From the NCBI GenBank assembly GCA_020846885.1, contig JADLDC010000267.1, positions 5,308 to 69,307 on the forward strand: DNA of 64,000 nucleotides. The letters are read 5' to 3'. How positions within the stretch are numbered: the stretch's first letter is position 1; each line of letters begins with the position of its first letter. The position numbers and the translations under genes were made by a program. This DNA comes from Acidobacteriota bacterium. Lineage in GTDB: Bacteria; Acidobacteriota; Blastocatellia; Pyrinomonadales; Pyrinomonadaceae. The notes beneath the pieces were generated by a model. That model saw only the letters and a list, made by a program, of their open reading frames with translations. It was not told the DNA's origin and made no database searches. Positions 3,204 to 47,077 of this stretch are shown here, piece by piece.

Positions 3204-4832
3204 TTATTCGTCATCGTCCACGGTCGGATAATTGTACGGCGGCTCGGTGACCACCGGTGTTATGTCGAAGTTGAACTCGGGCGGCGGCGAAGGCGTCGTC
3301 CATTCCAGCCCGGTCGCTCCCCACGGATTATTACCGGCCTTCGGGCCGAACTTCCACGCCCATATCATATAAATTAGCGGCAAAATATACCCGACACCGA
3401 GTATCGAGGCGCCGGCGGTCGATAGAACATTGAGGACCTGAAACTCCGGCGGATAGGCGTAGTAGCGACGCGGCATTCCCATGTAGCCAAGCACGAACTG
3501 CGGAAAGAATGTCAGATTAAAGCCGACAAAAACGATCAACGCCGCCAGTTTTGCCCAGCCTTCGGGATAAAGCCGGCCGGAGATCTTCGGGAACCAGTAA
3601 TGCAGCCCACTGAAATATGCCATCACCATTCCGCCGACCATGATGTAGTGAAAATGGGCGATGATGAAGTAGGTGTCATGCACGTGGACGTTCACACCAA
3701 GCGATGCGATGAAAAGCCCCGTCATTCCGCCGATCGTAAAGAGGCCGATAAAGCCAAGCGAATAGAGCATCGGCGTGTCGTATGAGATCGAGCCTTTATA
3801 AAGTGTCGCCGTCCAGTTGAACACCTTGATCGCGGAGGGCACGGCTACGGCAAAACTAAGCACCGAGAACGCCATCGCCGCGTACATCGATTCGCCGGCG
3901 ACGAACATATGATGCCCCCAGACCAAAAAGCTAAAGAATGCGATGCCAAAGGTTGAATAAGCGACGAAGTTGTATCCAAAGATAGGCCGCCGCGCGAAGG
4001 TAGGTATGACTTCGCTGACGACGCCCATGCCGGGCAGGATCATAATGTAAACCGCCGGATGGGAATAGAACCAGAACAGATGCTGAAACAATATAGGGTC
4101 GCCGCCAAGCGTCGGGTCAAAGATGCCTACACGAAAAACGCGCTCGACCGCGATCAAGGTCAGGGATATCGCCAGCACCGGAGTTCCAAGCACCTGGATC
4201 ATGCTTGTCGCATAGATCGTCCAAACAAAAAGCGGAAGGCGGAACCACGTCAAACCGGGAGCCCGAAGTTTATGAATTGTGGTAATGAAATTCAGCCCGG
4301 TCAGGATCGACGAAAACCCGACGATAAAAACGCCTGTTATTCCCTTGATCACCTGTGTATTCGAGAATGCGGTCGATAACGGCGCATAAAAGGTCCAGCC
4401 TGTATCCAAACCACCGGTAGCGAGGCACCAAATGATAAATGCGGAGCCGAGAAGGTAGAGATACCAGCTCAACAGGTTAAGGCGCGGAAACGCGAGATCT
4501 TTCGCCCCGATCATCAGCGGAAGAATAAAATTACCGAGCACGGTCGGGACCGACGGGATCAGGAAAAAGAAGACCATTACCAGGCCGTGCAATGTGAAAA
4601 GTTTGTTGTATGTATCAGCCGTGACCAGGTCGCCCTGCGGCGTGAGCAATTCGAGGCGTATCAATATCGCAAAGAAGCCGCCGACAAAGAACATCAGCGT
4701 CAGCGAGATCATATAGAGCAGAGCGATCCGCTTATGATCGGTCGTCAAGAGCCACGAAGCTATCCCGTGGCGGGCGTTCAGATAATTGATCGGTTCGATC
4801 TCGGGCCGCTCCAATGTGATCTCGCTGTTCAC
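3204..4832 (-). CDS. ctaD: cytochrome c oxidase subunit I (heme-copper oxidase catalytic subunit)
   Basis: 542 aa. Canonical motifs are present: [41 protein letters not shown]. Confidence 0.97.
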
Positions 4833-42343: not shown

Positions 42344-43750
42344 ATGGCAGAACAAAAGGATATCGAGACAGCGATCACGCGATTTAAGGAATCGTGCGGA
42401 GCTTATGAGAAATCGGATCGGTACTATCGAGGCGATCACGATCTTAAATTTGCGACGGAGAAATTCAAGAATGTGTTTGGCCCGTTGTTCCGCGAGTTTG
42501 CTTTGAACCTGTGCCCGGCGGTGGTCGATGCGTTGCGCGACAAGTTGATCCTCACGGAGTTTGGCGTTGAAGACGGCGGCGATACCGGATTGCCCGAGGC
42601 CGCCTGGAAGATCTGGCAGGCGAACCGGATGGGAAAGCGGTCGGGCGAGGTGCACAAGGAAGCGGTCAAGAACGGCGATTCGTACGTTATCGTCTGGCCG
42701 AACCCGGCGGGCGAGGTGACGATCTATCCAAACCGTGCGGCGACGTGCACGGTCATCTATGACGAAGAGACGCCGGGGAAGGTTCTTTGGGCGGCGAAAC
42801 ACTGGCGGGCAGCCGACAAGCGATTCAGGCTGAATCTTTACTACACGGACCGGATCGAAAAGTACATATCGAAGAAGACGCCGGGCGACCGGATCGAAGC
42901 GACGGCGAGCTTTTACGACAAGAATTTCACCGGCGGCAACACGGCCGCCGCGGCGAACGTTTTGCCGGACGCGAAAGATTTTGTGCCGATCGACGATGAT
43001 ATTCCGGTCGTAAGGAACCCGTACGGCGTCGTGCCGGTCTTTCATTTCGCGAACAACTCCGATATCGGAATGCACGGCCAATCCGAATTATCGGGGGCGG
43101 TCCCGATCCAGGACGCGCTGAACAAATCGGTGCTGGACATGCTGGTCGCAATGGAATTTGCGTCCTACCGGCAGCGGTGGGCGTCAGGGATCGAGATCGA
43201 GTACAACGACGATGGCGACCCGATACCGCCGTTCACAGCAGGGATCGAGAAGCTGTGGACGACAGAAAACCCGGAGGCGAAGTTTGGCGATTTCGAGGCC
43301 GCCAACCTGGAACAGTTCCTGAAAGTGAAAGACGGATTCCGAACGGACATGGCGTGCGTGACGGGAACGCCGATCTGGTATTTCATGCAGGCGAAGGGCG
43401 ACTTCCCTTCAGGCGAGGCCCTGCGAAAAAGCGAAACGCGGTTTACGAACAAGGTCCGCGACCGGCAGCAGTCCTTCGGCCAGGTGTGGGAAGACGTGAT
43501 GGCGTTTGCCCTGATGATCGAGAACAAGGGCAAAGGCGTTCGCCTTTTTGCGGGATGGGAAGATCCTTCGCCGCTTTCTGAGAAAGAAGAGCTTGAGAAC
43601 CTGATGATCAAAAAGGACCTCGGCATCTCGGACGAACAGGCGTTGATGGAGGCCGGCTACGGCGACGAGGACGTGAAGCGGATGATGGCCGCAAATCTGG
43701 CAAAGCGTGACGCAATGGTCGATTCATTCAACGCCGGCGAGGATGGGTGA
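42344..43750 (+). CDS. portal protein (SPP1 gp6-like family)
   Basis: 468 aa located between terminase and the MuF-like gene. The N-terminal pattern YYRGDHDLKF and overall size fit portal proteins. Confidence 0.75.
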   Translation: MAEQKDIETAITRFKESCGAYEKSDRYYRGDHDLKFATEKFKNVFGPLFREFALNLCPAVVDALRDKLILTEFGVEDGGDTGLPEAAWKIWQANRMGKRSGEVHKEAVKNGDSYVIVWPNPAGEVTIYPNRAATCTVIYDEETPGKVLWAAKHWRAADKRFRLNLYYTDRIEKYISKKTPGDRIEATASFYDKNFTGGNTAAAANVLPDAKDFVPIDDDIPVVRNPYGVVPVFHFANNSDIGMHGQSELSGAVPIQDALNKSVLDMLVAMEFASYRQRWASGIEIEYNDDGDPIPPFTAGIEKLWTTENPEAKFGDFEAANLEQFLKVKDGFRTDMACVTGTPIWYFMQAKGDFPSGEALRKSETRFTNKVRDRQQSFGQVWEDVMAFALMIENKGKGVRLFAGWEDPSPLSEKEELENLMIKKDLGISDEQALMEAGYGDEDVKRMMAANLAKRDAMVDSFNAGEDG

Positions 43751-44409
43751 CCAATCATAAATTTATGAACTACATTCTACCGTTTACATTGACGGGCGTC
43801 GTGATCACCATATTCGTTTATCTTTGGCTGCGAAAGAGAAGCGCGGAAAGCTGGCATCTCGACCCTGAAACACGAGGGCTGCGGCTGCTCGGCCAGGTGA
43901 AGCCGGTCGAGACGCCCGGCGGGCACGAGATCTACTTTGAAGAAGGCAGCGGGCCGGACTTTGCAAGGTTTGGCGGGGCTATCGACGCCGGCGTTGAAAA
44001 AACATTCAGAAAGCTCGAATGTGCGGGATATCCGGTTGACCGGTCAAAGCACCGGATAAAGGCGACCGTGTTCGCGGCCGAGCCGTCGGCGGACGGCAGC
44101 CCAAGTTTCAGGGTACCGATCAGGCCCGGCAATCCGTATTTCAACGGCGAGTTCGACAAGATGGCCGGCCGGCCGGATTGGCCGCATTATATCCTGGCCG
44201 CCGGGCAAACGATCGCTGTCGGCGAACCGTACGGCGACGTGTTCATAGTTCCGTACTGCACCGAAGATCACCTTGATTATCTGGCCCGGGCCGCGGAATA
44301 CGAAATGGAGCACGTCGGTTTAGCGTGGTACGACGGCGAAAAGTTTGAAGCGACGAAATACCATACTACCGGCGGCCATCCGTTAGTTGCCGACTGTCCG
44401 AAGGTATAA
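43747..44409 (+). CDS. membrane-anchored hypothetical protein inserted between the portal and MuF-like genes
   Basis: N-terminal TM segment ILPFTLTGVVITIFVYLWL. No recognisable domain. Confidence 0.5.
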   Translation: MTNHKFMNYILPFTLTGVVITIFVYLWLRKRSAESWHLDPETRGLRLLGQVKPVETPGGHEIYFEEGSGPDFARFGGAIDAGVEKTFRKLECAGYPVDRSKHRIKATVFAAEPSADGSPSFRVPIRPGNPYFNGEFDKMAGRPDWPHYILAAGQTIAVGEPYGDVFIVPYCTEDHLDYLARAAEYEMEHVGLAWYDGEKFEATKYHTTGGHPLVADCPKV

Positions 44410-44432: not shown

Positions 44433-46634
44433 ATGTCCGCTCTCGAAGATCTACTCAAAAAACATCGGCAGCGGATCGCGACGCGTGAGGCGGCGGCGTT
44501 TCGTGAAATGCTGGCGGCGTACGAGCCGATCGAGCGGGAACTGCAAAGCTCGTATCGGGACCTCCAGAAAAAGATCAAAGCGGCCCAGGCAGCGGGCGAA
44601 ACGATCAGCCCCTCGTGGTTTTATCGCGAACGGCGGTTGAAGCTGCTGCTGGAACAGGTGCGGGAACAGATCGAGCGGTTTGGCCGGAACGCGGCCCCGA
44701 TCGTCGAGCGGGAACAGCGCGAGGCGATACGGATAGCGATAGAGCAGGAGAGAGAGACGGTCCGGCTTGTCGCCGGGCCCGCAAACTCAAGTTTGCGGGA
44801 CATTGGGAGCCAGCTTTCGCATCGGGTTGTCGAGAACGCGGTCGGGATGATGGGCGACGGCTCGCCGATACTGAGCTATTACGCCGAGAACTTAGCGCCG
44901 GCGGTCGCCGAAAAGCTCAAAAGCGAAGTGATCAAGGCGGCGGCGATGGGAACGGATTTTAGCACGATCGCCCGACGGCTGGCGGCGACGGGCGAGATCA
45001 CCAGGCGGCGGGCGTTGACAATGGCACGGACGGAGGTGAACCGCGTGAGGCGGGAGGCGAAGCGGCAGTTCTATGAGGACCATTCAGACGTGATCAGCGG
45101 ATGGGAGTGGATAGCGTCCAAGAGCACACGGACCTGTGTGGTGTGCCTGGCAATGGACGGCACGGTGCATAAATTAAAGGAAGAGTTTCCGCAGCATATT
45201 AATTGTTTGACAGCGGGCACAATAGTTTGTTCGCCGGAAACTCGGACGGCGACCCGAAGATTTTACGAAGGCGATGTTGTGGAGATCGAAACGTCAAGCG
45301 GCCTTCGGCTGACCGTCACCCCAAATCATCCGATAATGACGCGGAATGGCTGGGTAGCGGCGGACCCCATTGAGAAAGGAAACTATGTAGTCGGCACAGG
45401 CGACGGACAAAGGGTGTGTATTGATATCAATCCACACGTAGACAACAAACCATCCGTTGTCGATCAGATATTTATTGCGGCGATGGAACGCCGCGGCATG
45501 ATATCCGAAGTTGTGCCACATTCCCCCGCAAATTTCCACGGCGACGGGAAAGGCAGCGATGTCGATGTTATATTTATCGACCGCCATCTGAGGCGTGATC
45601 TGGATTCCGCGTTCGGTAAGCCAGCGGCCGAGACGCAGTTCATAAGCGGACGCGAAGGTCTGGGAGTGTTGGCGGGACAAAGCCCGTTTGACGAGCTGTT
45701 CATGCGGCACCTTCCGCCCTCGGACCGCATCATGAGCGGCCTTGACATTTCGAGCGTTTTCCCCGGGCGTCCGCTGTTCCATCATCATGCGGTTGGCATC
45801 AAGAACAGATCGGATCGGGACGCCTATCTCGATGAGGCGACGCCGTATCACCTGACGCGACACTCCGAAATGTTTAGCGAGGGCGTTCTCGGAGGTTCCA
45901 CTTTTGTATCGGGAAGCAAGTTCGGCGGTGGGAAGGTCATGGCGATTAGTACAGGTGATTCCGCGTTCCTTCAAAATTCCGTAGAAGCGGCGGGAAGCGA
46001 CATTGAATTTTGCCGCGATTTCCTTAACAGGCACTCCGTCAATGTAAGCCTTGATCGCGTCGTCAAGGTTAGTCGGTATTTTTATCGCGGTCATGTTTTC
46101 AACCTTGAGACATCCACTGGATATTATATCGCGAATGGCATAGTGACCCATAATTGCCGGTGCAACATTATCGCCGTGATCGACGGTGTTGAGCGGGAAC
46201 CGCGGACGACGGCCGGTGAATGGTTTCACGGCCAACCGGCGGACGTGCAGGAAAAGATATTGGGCAAGGACGCTCTTGCGGCATACAAGAGAGGTGATGT
46301 GGACCTTTCTGATTTTGTCGGGTACTCGACGCACCCGGCGTTCGGAGTCAGCGTAAAACGCCGGAAGCTGGCGGATGCACTTGGCAAGGCGGTGCATGAC
46401 GACGCGCGGGAATATGAAGGAATTCTGCAAGCCGCGGGATACGGCACGAAGCGAGTTAAGACCAAGAGCACAAACTCGGTGTACATCGTGGTTGATATAA
46501 ACGGGGTCCGCGGAAAGATAAGGGTCTCAGACCATGCGGCGGCACGGACGGACAATATTCTGGACCTGCGGCCGAGCAAGAAGATCACAAAAGAGAAGCT
46601 GATCGAAGGCGTTGACAGGCACTTTGGCAGGTAA
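44433..46634 (+). CDS. MuF-like / SPP1 gp7-family head morphogenesis protein interrupted by an intein
   Basis: The exteins give ...CVVCLAMDGTVHKLKEEFPQHIN|CRCNIIAV..., the conserved MuF motif. The intein is at 45204-46154. Confidence 0.85.
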   Translation: MSALEDLLKKHRQRIATREAAAFREMLAAYEPIERELQSSYRDLQKKIKAAQAAGETISPSWFYRERRLKLLLEQVREQIERFGRNAAPIVEREQREAIRIAIEQERETVRLVAGPANSSLRDIGSQLSHRVVENAVGMMGDGSPILSYYAENLAPAVAEKLKSEVIKAAAMGTDFSTIARRLAATGEITRRRALTMARTEVNRVRREAKRQFYEDHSDVISGWEWIASKSTRTCVVCLAMDGTVHKLKEEFPQHINCLTAGTIVCSPETRTATRRFYEGDVVEIETSSGLRLTVTPNHPIMTRNGWVAADPIEKGNYVVGTGDGQRVCIDINPHVDNKPSVVDQIFIAAMERRGMISEVVPHSPANFHGDGKGSDVDVIFIDRHLRRDLDSAFGKPAAETQFISGREGLGVLAGQSPFDELFMRHLPPSDRIMSGLDISSVFPGRPLFHHHAVGIKNRSDRDAYLDEATPYHLTRHSEMFSEGVLGGSTFVSGSKFGGGKVMAISTGDSAFLQNSVEAAGSDIEFCRDFLNRHSVNVSLDRVVKVSRYFYRGHVFNLETSTGYYIANGIVTHNCRCNIIAVIDGVEREPRTTAGEWFHGQPADVQEKILGKDALAAYKRGDVDLSDFVGYSTHPAFGVSVKRRKLADALGKAVHDDAREYEGILQAAGYGTKRVKTKSTNSVYIVVDINGVRGKIRVSDHAAARTDNILDLRPSKKITKEKLIEGVDRHFGR
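44778..44799 (+). repeat. palindrome family variant CCCGCAAACTCAAGTTTGCGGG (followed by ACATTGGG)
   Basis: 10-bp perfect arms with two compensated arm changes. The trailing ACATTGGG matches tandem copy 2. Located inside the MuF-like CDS. Confidence 0.8.
45204..46154 (+). other. intein (317 aa) in the MuF-like gene
   Basis: Block A CLTAGTIV, block B LTVTPNHPIMTRNGWVAADPIEKGNYV, blocks F/G HVFNLETSTGYYIANGIVTHN followed by +1 Cys. The flanks reconstitute H-I-N-C-R-C. Confidence 0.85.
45294..46094 (-). CDS. antisense-encoded HTH plus Vsr/DUF559-like PD-(D/E)xK endonuclease (putative homing endonuclease), nested in the intein
   Basis: ATG 46094 (AAGG 9 nt upstream). Two HTH-like segments (VKEIAAKFNVASRRFYGILKERGI and ALAKHFGVSRQVIRRRLIEIGV). 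Nuclease core YNIDIAAFPVAVEICGGMWH ... HRRNKYLIDNGWFVVYVW fits the D..E.DG..H...R..L...GW.V.R pattern. Confidence 0.65.
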   Translation of the reverse strand: MTAIKIPTNLDDAIKAYIDGVPVKEIAAKFNVASRRFYGILKERGITCTNRHDLPTAELASRYKSGTSENALAKHFGVSRQVIRRRLIEIGVPIRSVLDANRMMMEQRTPGENARNVKAAHDAVRGRKVPHEQLVKRALSRQHSQTFASAYELRLGRWLTERGIQITPQMAVDKYNIDIAAFPVAVEICGGMWHNFGYHAAAFHRRNKYLIDNGWFVVYVWIDINTHPLSVACADYIVSFLNGVRRYPAIPRHYRMIWGDGQPKAA

Positions 46635-46651: not shown

Positions 46652-46870
46652 TTATTCGATAGCGATATCGCCGTCATCGAAATTTACGATCTCAATTTCC
46701 TCTGAATCGTCCAGTTCGCGAACAAGGGCGGAGAGCGGCCCGGCGGCCACTTTTTGACGGGACGGGTATTTTTCGGCAACGACGCGGGCTGCCCGCTCGC
46801 TGACCACGATAACGCGGTCAAGGGCGATAAGGCCGTCGGCGATCTCATTGAATCGTGCTTCGGAAACCAT
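46652..46870 (-). CDS. small acidic hypothetical protein downstream of repeat module copy 2
   Basis: 72 aa from ATG 46870. The longer track ORF start (46972) lies inside the repeated non-coding module. Confidence 0.4.
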   Translation of the reverse strand: MVSEARFNEIADGLIALDRVIVVSERAARVVAEKYPSRQKVAAGPLSALVRELDDSEEIEIVNFDDGDIAIE

Positions 46871-46926
46871 CCTTTGCAATATAACACGGTTTTGGATGCC
46901 GGGCGGCAAAAAGAACCTGGCGAAGC

Positions 46927-47077
46927 ACCTTTCCAAATGCGGTAAATCATTCCAAGAGCGGTAAACCTTCACATCTGCTATTTATTCGGACGTTCGTAAT
47001 TCTTTAATCTCGACGTGGAAAATGAAGAACCCACCCGCTAAAGGCGAGGTGGTTGCAGACTGATTATGAGCAAGAAA
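46927..47077 (+). repeat. 151-bp module, copy 2 (includes hairpin 47026-47056, mini-ORF 47022-47063 and the scaffold gene start)
   Basis: Aligns base-for-base with 35901-36051 except for a 6-nt block and a few substitutions. Confidence 0.9.

Follow-up and report, generated by a model that had tools for sequence, protein, structure and literature searches.

How a run of about 800 bases can carry protein-coding frames on both strands, and what each of the two frames is for, is the question raised by one locus in the 64,000-nucleotide stretch of Acidobacteriota DNA analysed here (the window). The locus is a gene for a MuF or SPP1-gp7-like head-morphogenesis protein, interrupted by an intein inside which a second, long open reading frame (ORF) runs in the opposite direction. 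We consider it very likely that this is a mobile class-1 intein at the HxNC/RC motif of a prophage MuF gene (a slash within such motifs marks the splice junction), with a homing-endonuclease gene inside the intein, on the opposite strand and codon-aligned with it. The positions of all features are collected in Table 1.

The 733 amino acid (aa) product of the gene is deposited as a 'hypothetical protein' (MCC6328980.1) of an Acidobacteriota metagenome-assembled genome (MAG). It matches Phage_Mu_F of Pfam at residues 161-258 (E 3.8e-13) as well as the phageSPP1_gp7 model of NCBIfam, and as it is read from one unbroken ORF the intein is a single polypeptide. An earlier note, made from the letters of this DNA, had placed a 317-aa intein between the HIN and the CRC of this protein, which is borne out by the intein models of both collections: Intein_splicing of Pfam matches residues 273-574 of the 733-aa protein (E 1.1e-10, 41.9 bits for a cut-off of 35.8), and the NCBIfam models intein_Nterm and intein_Cterm reach 25.0 bits (cut-off 24.5) and 17.3 bits (cut-off 15.6), respectively. 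Positions 1-40 of the Intein_splicing profile are without a match in the window intein. The junctions read ...EEFPQHIN/CLTAGTIV and YIANGIVTHN/CRCNII..., the insertion point being the conserved HxNC/RC motif of MuF, here HIN/CRC. Canonical splicing residues are all present (C1, T39-P-N-H42, H316-N317 and C+1), and in an alignment of 85 homologues C1, T39/N41/H42, the terminal His-Asn and C+1 are nearly invariant; in the C-lobe, block F is GHVFNLET and block G YIANGIVTHN. Removal of the intein in silico, to which the earlier assignment likewise stood up, leaves a 416-aa protein with a Phage_Mu_F score of 60.3 instead of 50.6 bits and a match to positions 2-112 of the 112 in the profile, as compared to 2-107 with the intein in place; the higher score and the completed profile argue that the extein junction is correct. 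The N-extein has a G+C content at third codon positions (GC3) of 0.75, typical for sense coding in this host.

No endonuclease was matched in the sense-frame middle of the intein by the models of Pfam and NCBIfam, in agreement with the earlier note, which had seen no endonuclease motif there. When the AlphaFold2 (AF2) model of the intein was compared to known structures with Foldseek, matches were limited to HINT splicing domains, those of the RadA, RecA and DnaB inteins being found with probabilities of 0.99-1.0. For intein residues 128-264 there was no match in the Pfam scan and none to a structure in Foldseek.

The opposite strand is a different matter. Its ORF starts with ATG at 46094, ends with TGA at 45294-45296, lies entirely within the intein and uses the same triplets as the sense frame. 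The encoded 266-aa protein has no database entry. By Pfam it matches the helix-turn-helix (HTH) models HTH_28 (33.8 bits, above the cut-off), HTH_23 and HTH_7, and more weakly REase_MTES_1575. Its AF2 model, built from an input of 19 sequences, has a mean predicted local distance difference test score (pLDDT) of 87, with 92-98 in the C-terminal domain, and shows an alpha/beta nuclease fold that is preceded by two bundles of three helices each. The best domain-level match in Foldseek is the catalytic domain of the homing endonuclease I-Bth0305I (3r3p; probability 1.0, TM score 0.61), and the HTH protein Cbp1 (2lvs) is found as well. A profile of the family searched against the sequences of the Protein Data Bank (PDB) retrieved 2lvs (1.3e-8), the DUF559 endonuclease-like 3hrl (4.1e-5), 3r3p (2.4e-3) and Vsr (1cw0, 0.054). 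The nuclease motif is YN-x-D ... AVE-x-F-GG-x-WH, and among the conserved residues E152, D178, E187, H194 and H199 are candidates for the EDxHD positions; the Asp at the 'E-x-D-G' position of DUF559 is replaced by Phe or Cys in this family. Every conserved nuclease residue is kept in the window copy (E152, Q169, Y175, N176, D178, E187, G190, G191, W193, H194, H199 and R206). The two HTH segments and the Vsr/DUF559-type core that the earlier note had recognised by eye are in this way recovered by Pfam, AF2, Foldseek and the PDB profile search. The antisense gene belongs to a real protein family, with a predicted architecture of tandem HTH modules and a PD-(D/E)xK nuclease of Vsr/DUF559 type.

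This family is large. Among 5.8 billion proteins 18 full-length homologues of the antisense protein were found (31-47% identity, E down to 1e-59), and a profile made from an eight-sequence alignment found relatives in 416 IMG/VR contigs and in 34 further instances in genomes of many phyla. In a profile search of 1.84 billion cluster representatives, 1,922 clusters at 50% identity were matched at E<=1e-30. While a blastn search of GenBank phages with the MuF gene gave no match, a search at the protein level did find carriers, namely 127 GenBank phage records, including 62 of Salmonella, 15 of Gordonia and 15 of Pseudomonas phages, together with phages of Klebsiella, Escherichia, Vibrio and Acinetobacter and phage Aaphi23. 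Carriers include Bacteroidales, Firmicutes, Actinobacteria, Chloroflexi, Cyanobacteria, Proteobacteria, Saccharibacteria and others, and the element is present in phages of more than ten phyla; those in culture include the Jerseyvirus phages of Salmonella, Aggregatibacter phage Aaphi23 and the Gordonia phages. We retrieved 119 loci by way of the antisense protein, or 120 counting the window. The sense ORFs across the antisense gene are all long (up to 1,457 aa), and of 85 non-redundant ones 76 match Intein_splicing, 48 Phage_Mu_F, 9 Phage_portal and 8 Phage_min_cap2. Their alignment gives a consensus with one intein site, HPN/C..GT.V ... VTPNHPILT..GWVAA ... EDFHGDG ... GHVYNLQT..GWY.ANGIITHN/CRC.

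The annotation of such loci follows one strand only. Gene callers keep one of the two, and where the antisense gene is called the MuF gene is left as two short flanking 'genes', which mimics a free-standing endonuclease; in metagenome annotation MuF is often given as two calls. At the GenBank phage matches listed, the annotated coding sequences (CDS) are head-morphogenesis, minor-capsid or 'hypothetical' ones, and in the two records inspected the annotated CDS runs opposite to the antisense gene, which itself has no annotation. Two proteins that seemed to be free-standing homologues amid small genes (P0003 and P0008) were rejected as such, the DNA of locus L004 showing that the flanks are a split MuF-intein ORF. 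In L004 (2492-3010 and 1260-2684) and in L126 a frameshift lies between the N-terminal part of MuF and the intein-bearing ORF, and is either an assembly error or the mark of a pseudogene. None of 79 profile hits is an in-frame fusion of a nuclease of the antisense type to an intein. Among the distant hits P0110, P0112, P0116 and P0117 have partial similarity to the N-terminal HTH part and carry LAGLIDADG_3 or GIY-YIG domains, which suggests, from sequence similarity, that the HTH DNA-binding module is common to different types of homing endonuclease.

Which of the two frames is under selection can be read from substitutions, since the register pairs sense and antisense codon positions 1-3, 2-2 and 3-1. 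Single-base codon differences in six independent pairs of loci (70-84% nucleotide identity) were classed by their effect, sense first and antisense second, as nonsynonymous (N) or synonymous (S). The rates per site were 0.034 for NN, 0.342 for NS, 0.083 for SN and 0.412 for SS. Changes that affect the sense protein only are close to the silent rate, whereas those that affect the antisense protein only are five-fold depleted. The comparison of substitution patterns which the earlier note had proposed accordingly gives an omega of 0.83 for the sense frame and of 0.10-0.20 for the antisense frame (0.20 from antisense-only changes; NN/NS = 0.10). By codon position, the antisense wobble position is the most variable, with 555 differences as compared to 315 and 163 at the other two. 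The same pattern, antisense constrained and sense near neutral, is seen region by region over antisense residues 1-222. Over residues 223-266, which are opposite the HINT N-lobe and block B, both NS (0.16) and SN (0.19) are depleted relative to SS (0.50), so that both frames are constrained there. The antisense protein is under strong purifying selection, and the sense linker is nearly neutral.

The sense frame is nevertheless always open. In 120 out of 120 loci the codon-aligned opposite frame is free of stops across the match, whereas each of the two remaining frames of that strand is interrupted by 3-29 stops. Over 66 non-redundant loci the antisense genes contain no TTA, CTA or TCA codon, while 278 would be expected from the codon usage of each locus's own exteins (summed log10 P = -138); loci at 45-50% GC account for 3-15 expected codons each. 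As a control we took other long ORFs of the same loci, whose aligned antisense frame is open in 6-35% of 260-codon windows, and in 6-10% of them at the GC content of the window; at the antisense-gene loci the aligned frame is open in 85 out of 85. By avoiding these three codons the antisense gene lets no sense stop arise, as the earlier note had reasoned, and this avoidance is the only family-wide rule on the read-through. Constraint on both frames consists of the low omega on the antisense side and, on the sense side, of stop avoidance together with amino acid constraint at block B and at the short conserved island described below.

The ends of the antisense gene coincide with the conserved splicing blocks. 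Its start is the complement of the His codon of block F (G-H-V-Y-N-L-Q), being ATG in 42 loci (sense CAT) and GTG in 12 (sense CAC). The consensus initiation region, CTGGAGGTTGTAGAC-ATG, is complementary to the V-Y-N-L-Q codons, and its GGAGG precedes the start by 8-9 nt. A motif like a Shine-Dalgarno (SD) sequence is present at this distance from the antisense start in 48 of 55 loci; the SD site pairs with the Asn-Leu-Gln codons of block F. In the window the site is CTCAAGGTTGAAAAC-ATG, and its AAGG, which derives from the Asn-Leu codons, is weaker than the consensus. An antisense SD and start require particular synonymous codons in the sense frame, and these are the ones preferred: the block F Leu is CTC in 45 of 52 loci (25% in the extein background, P = 1.5e-20) and the block F His is CAT in 42 of 54 (38% in the background, P = 2.5e-9). 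This codon choice is evidence for translation from the block F site, and the case that the antisense gene is translated from there is, although indirect, a strong one. A TATAAT found 28 nt upstream of the antisense ATG was considered as a -10 box and dropped, as it has no -35 box and the other loci share no -10 in the 30 nt upstream. The conserved C-terminal tail of the antisense protein, V-I-x-G-D-G, is in turn complementary to T-V-T-P-N-H of block B; in this overlap the sense residues are more conserved than the antisense ones and the antisense wobble is frozen.

A second place where the sense frame matters is the island around the (E)DFHGDG motif (intein residues 109-115; ANFHGDG at 45528-45548 in the window), which lies opposite P-V-A-V-E187 of the nuclease. 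We rejected the explanation that FHGDG is a mere shadow of the antisense P-V-A-V-E on account of the codons used. Antisense codon 183 is CCC, TCC, GCC or ACC, its first base varying and its third being fixed; codon 184 is GTC or ATC in 81 of 85 loci, codon 185 is GCC in 77 of 80 with Ala, and codon 186 is GTG in 70 of 71 with Val. Outside codons 183-186 the wobble position of antisense Ala and Val is free, and at these codons the sense wobble varies. A frozen antisense wobble with a variable sense wobble is the mark of selection acting on G-D-G-H in the sense protein. Family-wide the sense frame follows a looser pattern, P..IE..F.AL ... VP...[EK]D[FL][HK]GD ... VDVV, which is retained in inteins of dCMP deaminase genes, of which at least one (L120) has a broken antisense gene. 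The island may replace the N-terminal hairpin that goes unmatched in Pfam (profile positions 1-40), or it may contact the nuclease. A more daring idea, doubtful in our judgement, is that it would be a functional piece of the intein working together with the antisense nuclease, either as docking or DNA-binding hairpin of a two-chain homing enzyme or as a switch between splicing and nuclease. If this were true, two proteins that interact with each other would be encoded on opposite strands of the same 800 bp, and the antisense layout would be an adaptive timing of the nuclease apart from the late MuF message and not an accident of insertion. The earlier note had taken the shadow translation of the endonuclease gene to serve as the linker of the intein. 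This description fits intein residues 128-264; it does not fit residues 83-127, where the sense motif is selected, and the ends of the antisense gene overlap blocks B and F, with constraint on both frames there.

Put together, one continuous frame of the plus strand takes in the N-extein, the HINT N-lobe, a read-through of about 210 aa, the HINT C-lobe and the C-extein, and splicing of this precursor would give the 416-aa MuF protein. The antisense protein would be made independently of the late MuF message and would cut intein-less MuF alleles near the DNA coding for HxNCRC, after which repair would copy in the intein together with the nuclease gene. The most probable origin of the arrangement is the backward insertion of a Vsr-like endonuclease gene, until then free-standing, into a mini-intein, in the only frame by which the intein would stay open.

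Variant members of the family bear on mobility and decay. Related inteins are found in a methyltransferase gene (L121, 3001-4545), with the antisense gene intact, and in a dCMP deaminase gene (L120, 747-2111), where the antisense gene has an internal stop and has lost the catalytic motif while the sense frame and FHGDG are kept. In L124 (GCA_021310225.1, JABKAD010000003.1) a single sense stop at 3209-3211 directly follows the HINT N-lobe (...VGDYLACEIK*), at the position of the classical break point of split inteins, and the antisense protein is without GGxWH; by its sequence this locus may be a step toward a 'fractured' gene, or it may be plain decay. In Gordonia phage Vivi2 (L127) and Salmonella phage BPS11Q3 (L128) D...AVE of the antisense protein is kept and the WH of GGxWH is missing, the corresponding stretches being VEVHRSAQH and GGGWACTD, and the MuF strand alone is annotated. 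The closest relative found (L123, 2826-4131) is AT-rich and has a 54% identical antisense protein and an intact intein and C-extein. Only a few N-extein codons (..KLKDEFPQHVN) precede its intein, upstream of which an 832-aa low-complexity ORF ends at 2824; this contig is either chimeric or a rearranged remnant. In one pair of loci, L027 and L086, the nucleases are 80% identical and the exteins 55% and 30% identical.

Several observations weigh against a mobile intein with a homing endonuclease in antisense. For most moderately diverged pairs, compared with intein and extein boundaries set by a positional rule, the identity of the nucleases follows that of the exteins, which suggests vertical descent over frequent homing. 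Vivi2, BPS11Q3 and L124 keep the antisense ORF in spite of lacking GGxWH, so that in parts of the family the nuclease activity may be lost or the protein may have another role. With 3r3p the structural agreement is a domain-level one with a modest E-value (3.9e-3), and a promoter scan of the minus strand upstream of the antisense gene found no sigma-70-like promoter, the counts being at background. Finally, in the antisense gene of the window taken alone only 2.4 TTA, CTA or TCA codons are expected and the probability of finding none is 0.08, so that the open sense frame of this locus is not significant by itself.

The first two of these points also make up much of the case for regarding the antisense protein as real and selected, but domesticated, as a DNA-binding regulator, a nuclease for superinfection exclusion or against competitors, or another factor of benefit to the phage, with the intein as a fixed and vertically inherited passenger. 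To this may be added that an omega of 0.1-0.2 across about 40% amino acid divergence is unusual for a homing cycle of invasion and decay, and that mostly vertical patterns are described for the Vsr-like group in a preprint on actinobacteriophage inteins by Gosselin, Arsenault & Gogarten (bioRxiv 10.1101/2025.01.02.630785). We think domestication unlikely, given that the window copy has kept every conserved nuclease residue, that the closest solved fold is that of a proven homing endonuclease, and that the composite of intein and gene occurs in hosts as unrelated as methyltransferase and dCMP deaminase genes and in phages of more than ten phyla; the discordant identities of L027 and L086 and two actinophage clusters with patterns of horizontal transfer, reported in the same preprint, point the same way.

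Two other explanations deny a function to the locus or to one of its frames. The prophage might be in decay and its copy of the element an inert remnant, both frames being open only for lack of elapsed time. In favour of this one could call upon the non-significant open frame of the window copy, the decayed relatives L120 (antisense broken) and L124 (sense stop) and a nearest relative of only 54% identity, which leaves the recent history unreadable. An inert copy is very improbable in view of splicing residues and conserved nuclease residues that are all intact, an SD-like site and ATG in place, and intact portal, MuF extein and scaffold genes next to it. Hardly credible any longer is that the antisense ORF is a non-coding shadow and that a novel domain, encoded midway through the intein in the sense frame, is the true endonuclease, as this is refuted by the strand-resolved substitution pattern: NS, at 0.34, is at the neutral level of SS (0.41) and the reverse class is four-fold depleted. 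It is true that codon-aligned antisense frames are often open in GC-rich DNA, as the 6-35% of control windows show, and that the short sense motif FHGDG is conserved; yet it is the antisense protein that matches curated HTH and nuclease models and is folded with a pLDDT of 87, while sense residues 128-264 stay below 50 and are without structural or Pfam match, and it is the antisense SD and start that are kept through synonymous choice of sense codons. The central claim of the earlier note, an endonuclease gene lying antisense inside a contiguous intein, is therefore upheld by homology, predicted structure, strand-resolved selection and stop avoidance.

As to the surroundings, the MuF gene is flanked by an SPP1-type portal gene upstream and a scaffold protein gene downstream. 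Between the portal and MuF genes (43747-44409, plus strand) lies a 220-aa ORF with an N-terminal hydrophobic segment and no Pfam match. Between the MuF and scaffold genes a 106-aa ORF, also without Pfam match, is found on the minus strand (46652-46972) of an otherwise plus-strand head operon; being upstream of the antisense gene and on the same strand, it might mark a minus-strand transcription unit.

Table 1. The intein-bearing MuF gene and its antisense gene, with positions in the window.
Feature	Position	Strand	Basis or remarks
MuF / SPP1-gp7-like head-morphogenesis gene	44433..46634	+	ORF, Pfam Phage_Mu_F; 733-aa precursor, 416 aa predicted after splicing
N-extein	44433..45203	+	C-terminal end ...CVVCLAMDGTVHKLKEEFPQHIN
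Class-1 intein, 317 aa	45204..46154	+	Cys1 ... His-Asn317, then Cys+1; Pfam and NCBIfam intein models
HINT N-lobe, intein residues 1-70	45204..45413	+	AF2 pLDDT 85-98
Block A, CLTAGTIV	45204-45227	+	within HINT N-lobe
Block B, TVTPNHPIMT	45312-45341	+	within HINT N-lobe
Sense conserved island, intein residues 83-127	45450..45584	+	AF2 pLDDT 57-83, helix and two strands
FHGDG core of sense island	45534-45548	+	opposite the nuclease catalytic strand
Sense 'shadow' linker, intein residues 128-264	45585..45995	+	AF2 pLDDT <50, without secondary structure, predicted disordered
HINT C-lobe, intein residues 281-317	46044..46154	+	AF2 pLDDT 89-96; conserved across homologues
C-extein	46155..46634	+	first residues CRCNIIAV...
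Intein-less junction DNA			upstream side CAGCATATTAAT, downstream side TGCCGGTGCAAC
Antisense nested gene, putative homing endonuclease, 266 aa and TGA stop	45294..46094	-	homologues, Pfam, AF2, omega
Antisense translation-initiation region	46092..46106	-	ATG 46094-46092; SD-like AAGG 46106-46103
Two three-helix HTH DNA-binding modules, antisense residues 10-43 and 56-89	45828..46067	-	Pfam, AF2 helices, Cbp1
Nuclease domain, antisense residues 146-258	45321..45659	-	alignment invariants, pLDDT 92-98, DUF559/I-Bth0305I/Vsr matches

The interest of the locus lies in what the family offers. With more than 100 independent loci in phages and bacteria at 38-69% GC, an antisense overlap of about 800 nt and a measurable constraint on each strand, it is a natural calibration set for methods that detect overlapping genes. 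It shows in a concrete case how an endonuclease gene that was free-standing can become part of an intein while the intein stays whole, and how the translation signals of a nuclease can be anchored in the most conserved codons of the intein. It also shows that annotation pipelines overlook the nested antisense gene, and the cultured carriers make expression, splicing and homing directly testable.

The arrangement itself is already known, and the window locus is a further example of it, from an Acidobacteriota prophage. The earlier note was not aware of any description; contiguous actinobacteriophage inteins with an antisense Vsr-like endonuclease are, however, reported by Gosselin, Arsenault & Gogarten (bioRxiv 10.1101/2025.01.02.630785), and as the architecture has been reported for actinophages the locus is not new in kind. 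According to that preprint, the host genes are those for DNA polymerase, minor capsid protein, terminase and thymidylate synthase, residues 144-267 or so of the Vsr-like endonuclease match 3R3P (in HHpred) and 1CW0, the sense middle is unstructured, and a free-standing endonuclease gene invading an intein is proposed as the origin. The window locus resembles those inteins in its full intein, its Vsr-like ORF on the opposite strand, its unstructured sense middle and the minor capsid protein among the hosts. By tblastn the antisense protein is 36-38% identical, over 95% of the query, to sequences of Gordonia phages Vivi2, Fosterous, Affeca and Angelicage that lie opposite an annotated CDS for a MuF-like minor capsid protein, by which the window locus is of the same kind as the inteins described in the preprint and probably of the same family; these Gordonia MuF inteins are probably the preprint's own examples. 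The differences are that the window copy is from an Acidobacteriota MAG and not from an actinophage, and that an architecture called rare in the preprint was counted here in 416 IMG/VR contigs, 127 GenBank phage records and about 1,900 protein clusters. In the parts of the preprint consulted here we found nothing on how large the family is, on stop avoidance throughout it or on strand-resolved selection, and nothing on an SD and start within block F, on the two frames shadowing each other at blocks B and F, or on the FHGDG island of the sense frame.

Antisense LAGLIDADG ORFs in inteins (Synechocystis DnaX and a Chloroflexus SpoVR-like protein) are cited in the same preprint to Gorbalenya 1998 and Gogarten 2002; compared by description, they are alike in the opposite-strand gene and the contiguous intein, and differ in the nuclease family and the host genes. 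Fractured genes have a split intein with a free-standing Vsr-like or GIY-YIG gene between its halves (Dassa et al. 2009, PMC2677866). Like these, the window locus is a phage gene interrupted by an intein, with a separately translated Vsr-like gene between the HINT lobes; in fractured genes, however, three ORFs follow on one strand and the intein is split, whereas in the window the gene is antisense and the intein one polypeptide. The EDxHD homing endonuclease I-Bth0305I has been characterised (Taylor et al. 2011, PMC3239194; PDB 3R3P) and shares the Vsr-like catalytic fold. It is encoded by an intron in the sense orientation and carries NUMOD-like motifs at its N-terminus, whereas the antisense family has two HTH modules and the motif D...AVE-x-F-GG-x-WH and is by sequence closer to DUF559 (3hrl).

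Genes hidden in alternative frames offer the last two comparisons. Insertions of the ShiLan type in phage methylases contain a hidden HNH gene, out of frame on the same strand, and no detectable splicing domain (Arsenault et al. 2025, PMC11855218). They have in common with the window locus that an insertion, open in the frame of the host gene, conceals an endonuclease gene in another of its frames; at the window locus that other frame is antisense and codon-aligned, and the HINT domain is complete. Long antisense overlapping genes, for example those of Pseudomonas aeruginosa, are reported to be evolutionarily novel, the antisense ORF of each pair lying within an annotated gene (PMC8850804). 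The likeness lies in an overlap of about 800 nt or longer and in purifying selection on the antisense frame. The family described here is set apart from them by being old and recognisable, by selection on the other frame mainly for openness, and by its recurrence at more than 100 independent loci.

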